Shown: positions 1-5,378 of the stretch, in pieces
How positions within the stretch are numbered: position 1 is the first letter of the stretch
How the letters are laid out: each line of letters opens with the position of its first letter
Source of the DNA: a virus
Lineage: Duplodnaviria > Heunggongvirae > Uroviricota > Caudoviricetes
Direction: 5' to 3' (one strand)
IMG/VR virus record: IMGVR_UViG_2695420579_000006
Span: 1 to 5,378 of that record
Length of the DNA stretch: 5,378 nt
Notes under the pieces: generated by a model
The model's input: only the letters and a program-made list of their open reading frames with translations
Database searches by the model: none
Told to the model about the DNA's origin: nothing
Position numbers and translations under genes: made by a program

Positions 1-58
1 TACTTAAGTATTTTTGATTCTATTCCGGCACCATCTAAAACTTCAAACGCGTTGAAAA

Positions 59-84
59 TAAAAACAAAAACCCGCCGAAGCGGG
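59..84 (-). terminator. Rho-independent terminator at the 3' end of hok-family transcript copy A
   Basis: Minus-strand hairpin CCCGC-UUCG-GCGGG (plus 71-84) followed by a U-run (plus-strand A-run 61-70). Confidence 0.6.
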
Positions 85-154
85 TTAAGTGTGGGTGCAT
101 TGAGGATGCCTGACCCATCAGAGGTGGCGAGGGATTTCTCCCCCGCCTGGTCTC

Positions 155-172
155 TTACTCCTCAGGTTCGTA
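155..172 (-). CDS. hok: 3' fragment of a hok-family toxin gene, HokD/RelF-like C-terminus (...YEPEE, stop at 155-157); the 5' part is lost in the N gap
   Basis: Minus-strand translation of 158-172 gives YEPEE then TAA. The flanking 3' UTR (97-172) is homologous but diverged from the copy B 3' UTR (284-359). Confidence 0.5.
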   Translation of the reverse strand, partial: YEPEE

Positions 173-193
173 NNNNNNNNNNNNNNNNNNNNN
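173..193. other. Assembly gap (21 N); true length and content unknown
   Basis: Run of n characters in the sequence. Confidence 0.95.
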
Positions 194-238
194 CTATCTG
201 CGAAGGTGCGCGAATCAAATTCACCGGAAATAAACAAC

Positions 239-282
239 AAAAAACCCGCCGAAACGCTGAGAGATCACAGCGATGGGCGGGT
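239..282 (-). terminator. Rho-independent terminator of hok mRNA copy B
   Basis: Minus-strand stem CCCGCC(282-277)/GGCGGG(250-245) with an inner CGCUG/CAGCG pairing, followed by a U-run (plus-strand A-run 239-244). Confidence 0.6.
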
Positions 283-353
283 TAAGTGCGGGTGCGTTGA
301 GGATGCCTGACACATCAAAGGTGGCGGGAGATTACTCTCCCGCCTGGTCACTC

Positions 354-509
354 TTACTCTCTAGATTCGTAGTCTACGAAAACAGCGACCTCCGTCTGGC
401 CGATTCGGATTCGTACCTCGCAGAGGTCTTTCCTCGTTACCAGTGCCGTCACTATGACGGTTAAACAGATGACGATCAGGGCGATTAACATCGCCTTTTG
501 CTGCTTCAT
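354..509 (-). CDS. hok: Hok/Gef-family type I toxin (51 aa: MKQQKAMLIALIVICLTVIVTALVTRKDLCEVRIRIGQTEVAVFVDYESRE), copy B
   Basis: Internal ATG at 509-507 of the 70-aa ORF 354-566, preceded by AAGGAGAAG. Strong similarity (from memory) to HokD/HokC: single TM helix and the conserved RKDLCEVRIR...TEVAVF core. Confidence 0.85.
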   Translation of the reverse strand: MKQQKAMLIALIVICLTVIVTALVTRKDLCEVRIRIGQTEVAVFVDYESRE

Positions 510-566
510 AGCCTGCTTCTCCTTGCCTTTCGGCACGTAAGAGGCTAACCTACATTTGTGAGACAT
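354..566 (-). CDS. mok: mok-like reading frame: in-frame 19-codon N-terminal extension of hok (70 aa), copy B
   Basis: ATG at 566-564 with GAGG 10 nt upstream. Its position matches mok of hok/sok loci (and MokC, as I recall it) relative to the sok promoter, which lies inside it. Confidence 0.5.
   Translation of the reverse strand: MSHKCRLASYVPKGKEKQAMKQQKAMLIALIVICLTVIVTALVTRKDLCEVRIRIGQTEVAVFVDYESRE
523..551 (+). promoter_or_regulatory. Predicted sok antisense promoter (-35 TTGCCT 523-528, 17-nt spacer, -10 TAACCT 546-551), copy B
   Basis: Sigma70-like hexamers with 17-nt spacing on the strand antisense to mok/hok. Same position and similar sequence to the plasmid R1 sok promoter as I recall it. 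Confidence 0.5.
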
Positions 567-628
567 AGATTGGGCCTCAGATTAATGTTAAGCGTCTTGC
601 AGGACGCGTAATGTTAACTGGGGCTTTT
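556..628 (+). ncRNA. sok: Predicted Sok-like antisense RNA (about 65-70 nt), copy B; ends approximate
   Basis: Starts just downstream of the predicted promoter and is antisense to the mok start and SD. Ends in a stem GCCUCAG(574-580)/CUGGGGC(615-621, one G-U pair) followed by UUUUCUCU. Confidence 0.5.
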
Positions 629-666
629 CTCTGTCTGCCTTACAGTGACATACCCGAGGCAGACAG

Positions 667-681
667 CCTCAAGCACCCGCA
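667..681 (-). promoter_or_regulatory. Candidate 5' tac-like element of hok mRNA, complementary to the 3' fbi-like element at 287-302
   Basis: Minus-strand 5'-UGCGGGUGCUUGAGG (681-667) is complementary, with one bulged base, to minus-strand CCUCAACGCACCCGCA (302-287) about 380 nt downstream in the same transcript. Confidence 0.45.
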
Positions 682-684
682 GCA

Positions 685-720
685 ATCTTACCGACACCGA
701 TAAGAAAACGCTATTTTTTA
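685..720 (-). promoter_or_regulatory. Approximate hok promoter region, copy B (-10 candidate TAAGAT at 690-685; no clear -35)
   Basis: Position inferred from the predicted 5' end of hok mRNA; the -35 match is poor. Confidence 0.3.
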
Positions 721-847
721 TTGCCAGCACCATCTATCCAGGCTAGTTTATCTGCGTCAGAACGGCGCAATGCGCTCGCCTGAGATACGTTTACTTGCCA
801 TGGTAACAACAGGTAACGGCAATTGCTGTTTCTGTTTTGTTTCCTTC

Positions 848-878
848 AAAAACCCCGGACCATCAATCCGGGGTTTTT
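848..878. terminator. Bidirectional intrinsic terminator between the upstream operon and the hok module, copy B
   Basis: Stem CCCCGGA(853-859)/UCCGGGG(867-873) flanked by an A-run (848-852) and a T-run (874-878). Confidence 0.65.
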
Positions 879-883
879 GTTTG

Positions 884-967
884 TTAACCCCAACGGCAAA
901 TCGAATACACCACCAGCGCCACCGCCATCGCAATTCCTACCGTTGTTAATGCTTCAGGCCAGGTCAT
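884..967 (-). CDS. Conserved 27-aa micro-ORF ([27 protein letters not shown]), predicted small hydrophobic peptide, copy B
   Basis: ATG at 967-965 overlaps the TGA of the 114-aa gene (ATGA). GGAGG lies 10 nt upstream, and the stop sits immediately before the terminator. An identical arrangement occurs in copy C with a different upstream gene. Confidence 0.45.
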
Positions 968-1308
968 CGTAAAATATCCTCCACGCTTATCAGTCCGTTC
1001 CGCTCCAGATAACTCATCGCCTTATCCGGTAATTTGCAGTCTGGCTTCGCTTTCCTCAGTTGCCAGGTTAACTGCTTTACCAGCATGGTTAACTCATCGA
1101 CCAGACGCTGATATCCCACTGGTTTGTATTCATGCAATTTACCGGCTGGCTCTGCTGCCAGCGATACCAGTGCGATTTCCAGAACAGCAATATCCATCTT
1201 ATATGTGCGGATGATGTCATGGTCGATTGTGCCCGGTATGCACAGTCTCTGTGCTTCAATAGTCTCCTCTGCGTGAGCTATTAACTGCTCTCTGGTAAAA
1301 GTCGTCAT
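964..1308 (-). CDS. Hypothetical prophage protein, 114 aa, carrying the shared N-terminal MTTFTREQ...[10 protein letters not shown] module
   Basis: Full ORF with AAGGGG SD 8 nt upstream of the ATG. Start overlaps the stop of the 55-aa ORF (ATGA). Confidence 0.7.
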
Positions 1309-1472
1309 GCCGTAGCCCCTTCTTGATATTTTTCAAACCAGAACACAACCGGCTCTGCTTCCAGCGATGCCAGCGCAATCCGTGCCAGTTCCATTTGTTC
1401 ACCACGGGTAAGCCCGTTTTCAAGCGGGTTTTTAATGAACAATTCAATACGTTCTTTGGTAATAGTGGTCAT
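1305..1472 (-). CDS. 55-aa mosaic ORF: N-terminal module related to the 221-aa gene, C-terminal 16 aa identical to the HNH C-terminus
   Basis: AAGGAG SD then ATG at 1472-1470. The 5' end is near-identical to 4476-4455. The 3' block 1306-1353 is identical to 4474-4521. Confidence 0.55.
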
Positions 1473-1482
1473 GTGTTACTCC

Positions 1483-1681
1483 TTAACCCGCAGTGCTTTC
1501 AACTGATGAGGGGAACAAAATCTTTTCATCAAACCCTGCATTCATATCATGAACAGCAACACACCAATCCATCGACGAACGATTATCAAGAGCCTCCATG
1601 ATTTCATCCATGCGGCGTAGGTCATACAGGTAAATGCTTTTATCGCCAATGGTGTAAAAGCCAATTTTTTTCGGTGATGGA
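1483..1681 (-). pseudogene. 3' remnant (about 66 codons) of a gene interrupted by the IS600-like element
   Basis: The open frame runs from the IS end at 1682 to TAA at 1485-1483. The first 10 codons of the listed 76-aa ORF come from IS terminal sequence. Confidence 0.45.
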
Positions 1682-1724
1682 TGAGGTGTACTGGCAATAG
1701 CGGACACTACCATTTGTTCTTTTT

Positions 1725-2543
1725 TTAAGCAGCCATCTGATGATATTTTTCCCTGAAGGCTGCCGGGGAGATATTCCCCAGACGAGAGTGACGACGCTGA
1801 CGATTGTAGAAAATCTCAATGTATTCCCGTATTACTGAGATGGCTTCATCCCGGTTATTAAAACGATAGTGGCTCAGGCTCTCATTTTTCAGCGTTCCCC
1901 AGAAGCTTTCCATCGGAGCGTTGTCGTAACAGTTACCTTTACGCGACATTGATGTTTTCAGACCAGACTGCTCCTGTATGACCCGGTAATCGTATGCGCA
2001 GTACTGTGAACCTCGATCAGAGTGGTGGATTAGCCCGGCAGGTGGGCGCTGGCTCCTGAGCGCCATAAACAGGGCTTTACCTGTCAGCTCTTTTGTCATG
2101 CGCTCTCCCATGGCGTAGCCGACAATTTCGCACGTATAAACATCTTTGATGCCAGCGAGGTACAACCATCCCTCCTGTGTGGCAACATACGTCAGGTCCG
2201 CCACCCAGACCTGATTTGGTGCTGTAGGAGCGAACGTCTGGTTCAGCAGATTTGGCGCAACTGGCAGATTGTGGTTCGAGTTCGTAGTCGCTCTGAACTT
2301 GCGTTTCTGCTTACAGCGTAGCCTTAGCTCCTTACGAAGACGTGCCAGTCGGTCACGACCAACGATGATGCCATTCTCTGCCAGCTCCGTCTGGAGCCGC
2401 CGGGTTCCATATGTTTCGCGAGTGCGGATATGTGCCACCTTAATCTCCAGTTTTAGCCGCTCATCACTTTGTTTTCTGTCTGAGGGTTCATGCTGTACCC
2501 AGTTGTAATAACCGCTCCTGGATACACCAAATACCTGACACAT
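1725..2543 (-). CDS. insB: IS3-family transposase OrfB (272 aa from the first ATG; frame stays open upstream into the frameshift window)
   Basis: Protein carries the rve/DDE integrase core (from memory). It is in the -1 frame relative to orfA. Confidence 0.9.
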   Translation of the reverse strand: MCQVFGVSRSGYYNWVQHEPSDRKQSDERLKLEIKVAHIRTRETYGTRRLQTELAENGIIVGRDRLARLRKELRLRCKQKRKFRATTNSNHNLPVAPNLLNQTFAPTAPNQVWVADLTYVATQEGWLYLAGIKDVYTCEIVGYAMGERMTKELTGKALFMALRSQRPPAGLIHHSDRGSQYCAYDYRVIQEQSGLKTSMSRKGNCYDNAPMESFWGTLKNESLSHYRFNNRDEAISVIREYIEIFYNRQRRHSRLGNISPAAFREKYHQMAA

Positions 2544-2578
2544 CGCTTCAATGGGAAATTGTTGTCGCCATTGTTCGA

Positions 2579-2819
2579 TTAACGCGTATTTTTCAGCGAC
2601 TCCTGTGCAAAATACGCTGTTGCTTTTTTTAATATATCTCGCTCAAGGCGAGCTTCATTTAACGCCTTACGCAGTTGCAGAATTTCAGATTCCAGTTCAG
2701 CCACCGTGCGGGAACCAGGAGTACCGAGCCCTTTTCTGGCGGCGGTAACCCATTGTCCTAAAGTGCCTTCAGGAAGAGATAATCGGGAAGCGCCTTCACT
2801 GATCGAAAGTTGATTTTCA
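2579..2819 (-). CDS. insA: IS3-family transposase OrfA, 5'-truncated (residues ~22-100; helix-turn-helix and leucine-zipper region)
   Basis: Translation ENQLSISEGASRLSLPEGTLGQWV...ILKKATAYFAQESLKNTR matches IS600 OrfA as I recall it. The native start codon is absent. Confidence 0.8.
2584..2630 (-). promoter_or_regulatory. Programmed -1 ribosomal frameshift site (A AAA AAA G at 2630-2624) with downstream 9-bp stem (2618-2610 / 2592-2584) producing OrfAB
   Basis: A heptanucleotide run of A in the orfA zero frame. The -1 frame is continuous into orfB. The stem GCGUAUUUU/AAAAUACGC begins about 6 nt downstream. Confidence 0.6.
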
Positions 2820-2820: not shown

Positions 2821-2835
2821 CCCGCCTGGTCACTC

Positions 2836-2991
2836 TTACTCTCTAGATTCGTAGTCTACGAAAACAGCGACCTCCGTCTGGCCGATTCGGATTCGTACCT
2901 CGCAGAGGTCTTTCCTCGTTACCAGTGCCGTCACAATGACGGTTAAACAGATGACGATCAGGGCGATTAACATCGCCTTTTGCTGCTTCAT
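2836..2991 (-). CDS. hok: Hok/Gef-family type I toxin, copy C (identical protein to copy B)
   Basis: Same as copy B, offset +2482. It differs by one synonymous third-position change (ATA to ATT, Ile, at 2935). Confidence 0.85.
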   Translation of the reverse strand: MKQQKAMLIALIVICLTVIVTALVTRKDLCEVRIRIGQTEVAVFVDYESRE

Positions 2992-3048
2992 AGCCTGCTT
3001 CTCCTTGCCTTTCGGCACGTAAGAGGCTAACCTACATTTGTGAGACAT
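2836..3048 (-). CDS. mok: mok-like in-frame extended reading frame, copy C
   Basis: Identical to copy B at offset +2482. Confidence 0.5.
   Translation of the reverse strand: MSHKCRLASYVPKGKEKQAMKQQKAMLIALIVICLTVIVTALVTRKDLCEVRIRIGQTEVAVFVDYESRE
3005..3033 (+). promoter_or_regulatory. Predicted sok promoter, copy C (-35 TTGCCT 3005-3010, -10 TAACCT 3028-3033)
   Basis: Identical to copy B at offset +2482. Confidence 0.5.
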
Positions 3049-3110
3049 AGATTGGGCCTCAGATTAATGTTAAGCGTCTTGCAGGACGCGTAATGTTAAC
3101 TGGGGCTTTT
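3038..3110 (+). ncRNA. sok: Predicted Sok-like antisense RNA, copy C; ends approximate
   Basis: Identical to copy B at offset +2482. Confidence 0.5.
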
Positions 3111-3329
3111 CTCTGTCTGCCTTACAGTGACATACCCGAGGCAGACAGCCTCAAGCACCCGCAGCAATCTTACCGACACCGATAAGAAAACGCTATTTTT
3201 TATTGCCAGCACCATCTATCCAGGCTAGTTTATCTGCGTCAGAACGGCGCAATGCGCTCGCCTGAGATACGTTTACTTGCCATGGTAACAACAGGTAACG
3301 GCAATTGCTGTTTCTGTTTTGTTTCCTTC

Positions 3330-3360
3330 AAAAACCCCGGACCATCAATCCGGGGTTTTT
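3330..3360. terminator. Bidirectional intrinsic terminator, copy C
   Basis: Identical hairpin to 848-878. Confidence 0.65.
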
Positions 3361-3365
3361 GTTTG

Positions 3366-3449
3366 TTAACCCCAACGGCAAATCGAATACACCACCAGCG
3401 CCACCGCCATCGCAATTCCTACCGTGGTGAATGCCTCAGGCCAGGTCAT
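3366..3449 (-). CDS. Conserved 27-aa micro-ORF, copy C ([27 protein letters not shown])
   Basis: ATG at 3449-3447 overlaps the TGA of the DUF551-like gene (ATGA), with AGGAGG 7 nt upstream. The three differences from copy B are all at codon third positions. Confidence 0.45.
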   Translation of the reverse strand: MTWPEAFTTVGIAMAVALVVYSICRWG

Positions 3450-3811
3450 TGATTCACCTCCTGCGGTGGTTCCGGTAGCGGCATCCAGTGAGTTGAGCTC
3501 TCTACTTCAACGCCGTCTTTGTCCACAAAAGCCATCTTATTCCCGCCACGAGTGGGGCAAAAAACCTTATCCCAGGAACCGGGGAATACATTCCCGAGAT
3601 CATCGAGAAGAATCACATCGCAATATTCAGCAGGAACTGCATCACTACAGCTTATCCAGCCAGCCGGAGCTACCGGAGAGTTGCCAGCCTTACGCATGGC
3701 CATTTCCACGATTTCAACCATATCTCCTGGTGGAATTTTACAAAGTTGCCCAATACATTTCTGCTGCCTGGCATATTCGAGAATGTGCTCCAGTTTGGTT
3801 CGATTAATCAT
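3446..3811 (-). CDS. Prophage protein, 121 aa, DUF551-like (C-terminal THWMPLPEPP motif)
   Basis: Full ORF with GGGAG SD. Start overlaps the stop of the 221-aa gene (TAATG). The DUF551 call rests on the recalled C-terminal motif only. Confidence 0.65.
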   Translation of the reverse strand: MINRTKLEHILEYARQQKCIGQLCKIPPGDMVEIVEMAMRKAGNSPVAPAGWISCSDAVPAEYCDVILLDDLGNVFPGSWDKVFCPTRGGNKMAFVDKDGVEVESSTHWMPLPEPPQEVNQ

Positions 3812-4476
3812 TATTTATCTCCCTTAAGCATGGCAGCGCGGCAGGCGTTCCAGCCATCAACATAATCAAACGTATTACTATCGTTTGGCCCGATTTCATC
3901 CGGCACTATCGGCTCTGGTTGGATAGTGACGTTGGCAAAGGCAGCACGCAAACCGGTTTTAATTTCTTCGATTTCATCAGAGCCAAGCGATGAATCTGAC
4001 AGTGCGTGATGGAATGCGTAAGCCATGTCGTCGTTTACTGCAACCGGCACTGCCGGCGCTGCGTAAAGCGGTGTTATATCTGCCCGAAAATCACATGCTT
4101 TATGCAGTCGTACCCAACACTCAACTTCCGCTTTGTCAAAATATATAGCAGTGAACGTATTAGATTCCTGGTCAACTTGAGTAAACGTCACCTTCCACGC
4201 TACAGCTACGGCTTTCCATCCATCAGGTTGTCGCATTCGCGGGGCAGCATAAAGCTCATGCATTCCATCAGGCAGCGAGTGACCCACATACTCACCGAAC
4301 CCGTCAATACACATGCCCCCATCTTCAACAATGCATTCCGCTACAGGCTCTGCTTCCAGTGATGCCAGAGCGATAAGCGCCAGTTCACGAATTTCACCGC
4401 CGTCTATATCGTCAATATCATCGCGGCCAGAAATGTTAGCCAGCCATTGCAGTCGCTCTTTGGTAATAGTGGTCAT
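3811..4476 (-). CDS. Hypothetical prophage protein, 221 aa, with the shared N-terminal module (MTTITKER...[10 protein letters not shown]) and two LYAAP motifs
   Basis: Full ORF with AAGGGG SD 8 nt upstream. Start overlaps the HNH stop (ATGA). Confidence 0.75.
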   Translation of the reverse strand: MTTITKERLQWLANISGRDDIDDIDGGEIRELALIALASLEAEPVAECIVEDGGMCIDGFGEYVGHSLPDGMHELYAAPRMRQPDGWKAVAVAWKVTFTQVDQESNTFTAIYFDKAEVECWVRLHKACDFRADITPLYAAPAVPVAVNDDMAYAFHHALSDSSLGSDEIEEIKTGLRAAFANVTIQPEPIVPDEIGPNDSNTFDYVDGWNACRAAMLKGDK

Positions 4477-4838
4477 GCCGTAGCCCCTTCTTGATATTTT
4501 TCAAACCAGAACACAACCGGGTCAGATTTCATTTCAACCAATCCCATACGAACCAGCGCTTTGCCTTTCCCGGACGCAAGGAATTCACGACGACCATCAC
4601 TGATAATTCGTCGATAATCTTCCAGGCTACTGCAATGCTTGTGCAGATTGCATGGGTGGCATGCTGGTACCATGTTGGATATATCGTCACGTTCCTGGTG
4701 AAGCATATTTCCATCAAAACGAATGACCGGTTTTACATGGTCTGCATGCCACTTTTCGCCAAGTTCGCAGCCGCAATAAGCGCAGCGACCACCGAACTTC
4801 ATGCGCAGTTCTGCACGTTGTTTTTTCGTCAGTGCCAT
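4473..4838 (-). CDS. HNH endonuclease, 121 aa from the internal ATG at 4838
   Basis: HNH signature CAYCGC...WHADHVKP...ACHPCNLHKH. The start is chosen at MALTKKQ, with AAGGAAA upstream and 1 nt after the stop of the 72-aa ORF. The longer 151-aa frame would overlap that ORF. Confidence 0.8.
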   Translation of the reverse strand: MALTKKQRAELRMKFGGRCAYCGCELGEKWHADHVKPVIRFDGNMLHQERDDISNMVPACHPCNLHKHCSSLEDYRRIISDGRREFLASGKGKALVRMGLVEMKSDPVVFWFEKYQEGATA

Positions 4839-4839
4839 A

Positions 4840-5058
4840 TCAGCTTTCCTTATACGGATTAATTTTATTGTGCAGTGTGTTGAATGACGCCCATACCACG
4901 TCGTTATACAATTCAATAACTGGCTCAATTATTTTTCCGATTATCCAGACAAAAATTAGCGGGGATATCGGTGTCATCAACACGATAAACAGAATGAGAA
5001 ACAGGAATTCTGTTGTTCTACTCTTTCGCGGATATTTTTTTCTAAATAATGTAACCAT
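4840..5058 (-). CDS. Small membrane protein, 72 aa: basic N-terminus, one long hydrophobic segment; sits in a locally AT-rich segment
   Basis: ORF MVTLFRKKYPRKSRTTEFLFLILFIVLMTPISPLIFVWIIG.... Stop is 1 nt before the HNH start. The leader is structured (see hairpin feature). Confidence 0.5.
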   Translation of the reverse strand: MVTLFRKKYPRKSRTTEFLFLILFIVLMTPISPLIFVWIIGKIIEPVIELYNDVVWASFNTLHNKINPYKES

Positions 5059-5064
5059 TCATTA

Positions 5065-5086
5065 CCGCCCTTTCGGGCGGTCTCCT
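5065..5086 (-). promoter_or_regulatory. Leader hairpin CCGCCC-GAAA-GGGCGG (5080-5065) between an AGGAG (5086-5082) and the ATG of the 72-aa ORF
   Basis: Perfect 6-bp GC-rich stem with a GNRA tetraloop. The AGGAG is 23 nt from the ATG in linear sequence but about 7 nt if the hairpin is formed. Confidence 0.4.
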
Positions 5087-5150
5087 GATGATTTGAGGGT
5101 GCAGAAATCCCTCCGGTTAAGGATTAAATTTTTAACAGTGCTAAATTTAA

Positions 5151-5378
5151 TTATTCAGTTCTGGATTTTGTCGCCCTGCGTATCCGCGCTTTCGCGTTAC
5201 GCTCAATCTGTATCAGCTTTTCTATATTTCTCCGCCTTTCCTGTTCCTCCTGGCGCAATAGCCTTACATCATCTGCCAGTCTGGTTTCTCTTTTTGCCAC
5301 AGAGAGCATCCAGTCAAACGGCTCCACAACCGCACCGCAGATTTTACAGCGGACCTGACGCTCTTTTTCGTCAACCCG
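5151..5378 (-). CDS. 3' portion (75 codons) of an unidentified gene running off the right edge; contains CKICG and a basic, coiled-coil-like C-terminus
   Basis: Minus-strand frame is open from the window edge to TAA at 5153-5151 (...RVDEKERQVRCKICGAVVEPFDWMLSVAKRE...ARIRRATKSRTE). Not in the ORF track because the start lies outside the window. Confidence 0.4.
   Translation of the reverse strand, partial: RVDEKERQVRCKICGAVVEPFDWMLSVAKRETRLADDVRLLRQEEQERRRNIEKLIQIERNAKARIRRATKSRTE

Follow-up and report, generated by a model that had tools for sequence, protein, structure and literature searches.

In the hok/sok locus of plasmid R1 a 5' tac element pairs with a 3' fbi (fold-back inhibitory) element, which keeps the full-length mRNA closed and prevents its translation; slow trimming at the 3' end gives rise to a form that is open to either Sok binding or translation (PMC9841398). 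A related gene, hokD (relF, b1562), resides in the Qin cryptic prophage of Escherichia coli K-12. Further hok genes, which PGAP labels 'HokD' or 'Hok/Gef family protein', are found in prophages of E. coli and Shigella, where they occupy a slot in the nin region of lambdoid prophages; matches to hok genes in this slot occur in more than 4,000 E. coli genomes.

Here we analysed a stretch of 5,378 nucleotides (the window), which is split by N into the pieces 1-172, 194-2819 and 2821-5378 and in which all hok features lie on the minus strand (Table 1). A preliminary description had recognised three hok-family copies in it, referred to here as copy A (a 3' end), copy B and copy C. Hereby, three hok loci are needed as references, namely X, to which we assign copy A, Y, the locus of copy C, and Z, an allele with an extended terminator. 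Copies B and C as well as the Z allele occupy the nin-region slot mentioned above. Locus X shares with hok/sok of R1 a small HOK_GEF toxin, an mRNA of about 400 nt, (predicted) tac-fbi pairing, a terminal stem-loop and a sok-type leader; the R1 system is plasmid-borne, whereas locus X is chromosomal, prophage-borne and known here from its sequence and predicted folds. Whereas K-12 hokD follows relBE and gives no match to the sok leader family RF01794, locus X has a full leader, lacks relBE and, unlike the K-12 gene, places hokD between a 114-aa ORF and Rem/DUF968. What sets the window apart from the prophage hok loci of E. coli and Shigella is the combination found in copy B, i.e. a Z terminator, a Y body and an X upstream region. 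With a probability of roughly 75%, positions 1-172 are truly the 3' end of one complete hok/sok locus of the hokD type (X), and the apparent cluster of three copies is most likely an assembly artefact.

Table 1. Positions of hok-related features, flanks and joins in the window.
Feature	Position	Strand	Remarks
X-locus hokD downstream flank	1-60	-	100% identity to L022-L031 and several IMG/VR contigs; ~95% to K-12 hokD downstream sequence
Copy A intrinsic terminator	69-86	-	CCCGC-UUCG-GCGGG at 71-84, c(UUCG)g, 5-bp G+C stem; U-run 61-70
Copy A fbi element	93-105	-	CCUCAAUGCACCC
Conserved 9-bp hairpin of copy A, GAAA loop (GNRA-capped)	126-147	-	between stop codon and fbi
Last five hokD codons (YEPEE) and stop	155-172	-	remaining CDS absent from window
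Scaffold gap, 21 N	173-193	.	cuts off hokD gene body
Z-type hok downstream flank, terminator, fbi	194-317	-	foreign to X locus; matches FDAARGOS_943/944
Copy B terminator	243-283	-	two-tier hairpin, -24.7 kcal/mol, z-score -5.3; 23-nt loop insert 254-276
Y-type hok body of copy B	318-893	-	same as copy C and closed-genome locus Y except T at 453
Copy B hairpin	323-344	-
Copy B Hok CDS	354-509	-	51 aa ending ...VDYESRE; in-frame 70-aa extended ORF to 566
Copy B sok/leader	504-678	-	RF01794, 118.1 bits
Upstream half of X locus	894-2819	-	27-aa, 114-aa and 55-aa ORFs, IS600-truncated 76-aa ORF, IS600-like element
IS600-like IS3-family element	1682-2819		internal cut at single N
Single N, second scaffold join	2820	.
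Locus Y (copy C): hok, DUF551, 221-aa ORF, HNH, DUF4014	2821-5378	-	different prophage, beside ttcA
Copy C Hok CDS	2836-2991	-	full hok leader and sok region, RF01794 118.1 bits

Identity of copy A

The reading frame of copy A ends with TAC GAA CCT GAG GAG TAA, encoding YEPEE and a stop, and the preliminary description, which matched ...YEPEE to the C-terminus of HokD, was correct on both points. Likewise, it rightly took the 3' UTR of copy A to be homologous to, but diverged from, that of copy B: positions 61-172 align with 240-370 at 88.7% identity (94 matches, 12 mismatches, one 23-nt indel corresponding to 254-276 of copy B and one 2-nt indel). The UUCG-type terminator loop of copy A and the loop insertion of copy B that it reported are both present, and the gene body of copy A is indeed missing from the window, cut off by the 21-N gap.

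The copy A terminator, for which an energy of -12.5 kcal/mol is predicted, was also detected by a simple terminator scan, and 57-61 of 63 unique hok 3' regions preserve the pairs of its stem. For the 9-bp hairpin of copies A and B the pairs are kept in 55-63 of these 63 regions, with GC/AU and GU/GC/AU alternation at two pairs.

Positions 1-172 match annotated hokD with E = 4e-79, far beyond chance. The stretch is matched in 4,127 of 5,426 complete E. coli genomes (2,802 with at least 80% coverage), always under genes that carry the PGAP label hokD, and such hokD-type 3' ends occur at a median of one and at up to six places per genome. The alignment to K-12 hokD, at about 95% identity over the 172 nt, runs through the stop codon, the hairpin, the fbi element, the UUCG terminator and the downstream flank. 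The description of copy A as HokD-like is borne out by the orthologous gene in closed genomes, whose 51-aa product is identical to K-12 HokD (b1562); a single protein, MKQQKAMLIALIVICLTVIVTALVTRKDLCEVRIRTGQTEVAVFTAYEPEE, is encoded by the genes in L001, in K-12 and in the closed Shigella-type loci. Since the window holds only five codons of the gene, membership in the Hok/Gef family was evaluated on the orthologue in one closed chromosome (L022), which is 100% identical over the shared 172 nt. This protein (MKQQ...AYEPEE) scores 82.9 bits against PF01848 (HOK_GEF; cut-off 22). Among the NCBIfam models, which do not discriminate HokD, no HokD equivalog matched and only the Hok subfamily model was hit, below its cut-off. 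Copy A thus belongs to the Hok/Gef family (PF01848) and to the hokD (relF) orthologue group, and in itself it is nothing new, as hokD and the 3' architecture of hok mRNAs are already known.

Two Rfam candidates on copy A, isrK and rsmX, stayed below threshold and were rejected as reflecting a generic hairpin-plus-terminator shape. The isrK hit covers positions 65-146 of the minus strand with 25.7 bits (gathering score 50) and is equally found on the 3' UTR of K-12 hokD (L189, 2030-2111); the signal most likely reflects the generic order of hairpin, spacer and terminator.

Locus X in closed chromosomes and the predicted fold of its mRNA

The 76-aa ORF at positions 1483-1713 belongs to a gene truncated by the IS600 insertion and therefore marks one specific locus. 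Looking up this ORF led to ten closed chromosomes of 4.8-5.0 Mb (L022-L031), which are of Shigella sonnei type; other proteins of the window lead to related chromosomes, including those of S. sonnei 75/02 (CP019689) and Ss046 (CP000038.1) (PMC5447701). All closed genomes compared here are relatives of the source strain and not the source strain itself. In these chromosomes, locus X is located in a lambdoid prophage remnant next to ompW and is flanked on one side by ompW, yciC, yciB and yciA and on the opposite side by Rem, DUF968, RusA and Q.

Positions 1-172 are 100% identical in nine of the ten closed chromosomes and 99.4% identical in the tenth, and in all ten their counterpart forms the 3' end of the sole hok gene, directly beside the gene for the 114-aa protein. 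Positions 879-2819 match the DNA that adjoins hokD in the same chromosomes, with 894-2819 being 100% identical to three of them (L023, L025, L030). The counterparts of positions 172 and 879 are separated by 345 nt, which hold the hokD body and its leader. This adjacency, with only 345 nt in between, argues that copy A and positions 894-2819, upstream of copy B, are in all probability the two halves of one locus, namely X. The claim that copy A stands in tandem with copy B hence finds no support in the chromosomes that carry the same IS600-disrupted locus.

A sok leader as modelled by RF01794 was found at the closed-genome X locus (112.4 bits; gathering score 59) and in copies B and C; for copy A it is absent from the window together with the gene body. 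We reconstructed the X mRNA (415 nt) from positions 10872-11286 of L022 and calculated its minimum free energy fold. Hereby, nucleotides 1-12 (tac, GGGUGCUUGAGG) pair with nucleotides 376-388, which are the fbi element of copy A in the window. The same tac-fbi pairing is predicted for copy B, whose fbi element is found at 290-302. In the predicted structure the 3' fbi element is thus complementary to the 5' tac element and would close the full-length mRNA, as is characteristic of hok/sok-type loci. By analogy with R1, the hokD 3' region would keep the full-length mRNA closed and untranslated via fbi-tac pairing, and slow 3' trimming would remove the fbi element and permit refolding, followed either by binding of Sok or by translation of the membrane toxin.

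The K-12 gene (L189, 1,645,119-1,645,274) gives no RF01794 leader match, whereas a full leader is found in L022 (10872-11286). This contrast marks the K-12 reference copy as the truncated form and the prophage copies as the complete hok/sok-type loci.

Composition of copy B and location of copy C

Copies B and C encode the identical 51-aa Hok protein (PF01848, 77.3 bits), each with a 70-aa in-frame extended ORF. The preliminary description had assigned the hok loci of the window to two lineages; there is indeed more than one lineage of 3' ends, their number being three, namely X (YEPEE), Y (YESRE) and Z (YESRK, with the 23-nt insert). To resolve the composition of copy B, the window was aligned in a multiple alignment with X (L022), Y (L007, the copy C locus) and Z (L004, E. 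coli FDAARGOS_943). Copy B follows Z from 194 to 317, Y from 318 to 452, has T in the X/Z state at 453, follows Y again from 454 to 893 and X from 894 onwards. Every switch falls inside an exact shared repeat of 32-82 nt; these repeats measure 40 nt (278-317), 32 nt (421-452), 82 nt (454-535) and 50 nt (894-943). Furthermore, the second piece starts within 8 nt of the point where the downstream flanks of Z and X converge into shared repeat sequence.

The Z-derived part is 100% identical over 194-290 to E. coli FDAARGOS_943/944, in which QueH and DUF1367 flank a single hok. S. flexneri SFBU1023 and E. coli ECMA0423 are 98.8% identical to it over 194-277, with the first 45 nt of the Z flank (194-238) being exact.

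As sole difference between the bodies of copies B and C we observed T at 453 versus A at 2935, synonymous in an Ile codon, where T is the X/Z state. Owing to this T, copy B is not explained by a simple copy of Y reads.

The junctions of copy B were searched for in sequence collections. A 75-mer across the Z|Y junction is absent from IMG/VR and from JGI metagenome contigs and is covered by no complete E. coli genome; as controls, the Z insert was recovered from 26 IMG/VR contigs and the X hokD junction from at least 120. An 89-mer across the Y|X junction is absent from IMG/VR and reaches 96.9% in its best E. coli match, and it is found in one metagenome contig of 1,368 bp (L179), which is 99.1% identical to window positions 278-1608. 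In this contig a Y-like hok with ten differences in the hok part is joined to the 114-aa upstream region and is followed by a Y-type terminator and then IS1. Another locus (L034) combines a YEPEE gene with a Z-type terminator. Natural mosaics among prophage hok loci thus exist. The exact Hok protein of copies B and C occurs in the Y context only (DUF4014, HNH, 221 aa, DUF551, hok, IS1; 25 of 25 contigs read, Ss046 among them) and in none of these contigs beside the 114-aa gene. The full combination of copy B, i.e. Z terminator with the 23-nt insert, Y body and X upstream region, is absent from every collection searched.

Alternative derivations of copy B were considered and discarded. Its 3' end is not that of an IS1-free ancestral locus Y, as the intact Y terminator (FDAARGOS_944) lacks the 23-nt insert and has a different flank. 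A majority-rule collapse of the three paralogues does not account for copy B either, as copy B has the Y state even where X and Z agree with each other and differ from Y. An Rfam match of the copy B hairpin to a CsrC fragment is sub-threshold and was rejected as an identity. For the junction-spanning ORF at 770-949, the gene-position index lists no gene with that product, which is uninformative.

Copy C belongs elsewhere. Positions 2821-5378 are 100% identical to locus Y (L007, L181 and L187, the latter being S. sonnei Ss046, CP000038.1), whose prophage adjoins ttcA, dbpA and zntB. In chromosome CP151357.1 (L022, L181) the X hok is located at about 1,827,634 and the Y hok at about 1,950,288, i.e. 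122.6 kb apart. In closed chromosomes, the locus Y terminator is directly followed by IS1, not by IS600. Together with the distance between X and Y, this makes the second join, the single N at 2820, suspect as well. The IS600-like element breaks off at this N about 126 bp before its end and runs straight into the middle of the 3' UTR of copy C.

Each closed-genome locus has one hok within 5-10 kb on either side. Among 177 related loci fetched, none shows tandem hok genes: 173 hold one hok-like region, and the other four hold one hok split by an insertion. The proposed clustering of three hok loci is therefore not upheld, since body and flank of copy B derive from paralogous loci, copy C lies 122.6 kb away in another prophage, and tandem or clustered arrays are lacking among the 177 loci.

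Probable origin of the arrangement

The window has an odd length of 5,378 nt and two N joins, its IS600 is truncated internally, and its ends are bounded by repeats. Together these features suggest that it is a whole small scaffold, in which three contigs were probably caught between repeats. Short-read assembly, scaffolding or gap-filling across the hok, IS600 and IS1 repeats could have produced such a scaffold. Between the X halves about 345 nt would be lacking, comprising the hokD coding body, the sok target and leader and the tac element. In their place stand the 21 N and positions 194-893, which would have been stitched together from paralogous loci, with Z providing flank and terminator and Y the body. 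The assembly probably lost the hokD body and, by graph traversal or gap filling, may have threaded the paralogous sequence in. Two findings count against an assembly artefact, namely the natural hok mosaics (L179, L034) and the T at 453; it is mainly because of these mosaics that our confidence in this explanation is not higher. Moreover, no simple link geometry readily accounts for a gap of 21 N.

Alternatively, the arrangement could be real, recombination or gene conversion between prophage hok genes having placed a hybrid copy B beside a hokD 3' end that was retained; the result would be a true tandem or else a remnant together with an intact pair. Natural mosaics (L179; L034, L144), the T that distinguishes copy B from copy C and the heavy rearrangement of Shigella genomes by IS elements speak for such a history, which we nevertheless consider unlikely, given that this layout is missing from all ten closed chromosomes that share the IS600 insertion, that the Z|Y junction was found nowhere, that the Hok protein of copies B and C is confined to the Y context and that tandems are lacking in the 177 loci. 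In addition, joining the hokD CDS to the Z flank would call for illegitimate recombination, as there is no homology at the join. That the source strain truly has a hybrid hok (Z terminator with insert, Y body, X upstream region) beside a retained hokD 3' end is, in our estimation, quite improbable. If true, the hybrid locus would record very recent recombination or gene conversion among three prophage type I toxin loci in one Shigella genome.

A further explanation takes 194-2819 as a faithful copy of a real locus and 1-172 as the misplaced contig end of a second, X-like prophage. The first piece is only 172 bp long, repeats bound both sides and hokD-type 3' ends are very common in E. coli, all of which would favour misplacement; yet in closed relatives exactly 1-172 adjoins exactly 894-2819, and the source strain would need to carry both a duplicated and a converted X locus, which renders this explanation very unlikely. 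It is hardly credible that the N run replaces precisely 21 bases that were masked or left uncalled, which would make copy A a truncated hokD relic, at most about 13 codons long, joined to the Z flank: the run is short and of fixed length and consensus sequences do contain single-base N calls such as that at 2820, but the 21 nt that precede the counterpart of 194 in native Z loci belong to a shared downstream gene region and not to hok, no related locus holds such a relic, and IS600 is cut internally at the other N.

The biological weight of the window is small, as its hokD copy is identical to that in finished Shigella sonnei-type chromosomes. It calls for caution, however: in genomes rich in IS elements and prophages, small N-joined scaffolds can juxtapose paralogous toxin loci and create hybrids. 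Thus, toxin-antitoxin counts and 'clusters' taken from draft assemblies need to be checked against closed genomes.

Apart from its role in copy B, the 23-nt insertion in the terminator loop is a natural allele, present in 26 IMG/VR contigs, S. flexneri SFBU1023, E. coli ECMA0423 and FDAARGOS_943/944 (L004, L032-L057). It roughly doubles the predicted stability of the hairpin (-24.7 vs -12.5 kcal/mol). In another locus (L144) about 31 nt of different sequence are inserted at this position, and the terminator loop may thus be a recurrent insertion site.

In several IMG/VR loci (L035, L038, L103, L149, L159) insertions of about 1-3 kb interrupt the hok leader or body, and the hokD of L082 has a premature stop codon; these are examples of the decay of prophage hok genes.

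Upstream of the Y-type hok leader we observed a segment of 192 nt (687-878 and 3169-3360) that is absent from locus X. It is associated with a strong, apparently bidirectional terminator hairpin (847-879), shows sub-threshold Rfam matches to STnc30 and PsrR1, and may shield hok from read-through. Just upstream of hok, X-type and Y-type loci share a conserved hydrophobic ORF of 27 aa, MTWPEA[LF]..., on the minus strand (884-967 and 3366-3449). This ORF overlaps the start of the next gene, is unannotated in the matches inspected and may encode a small membrane protein.
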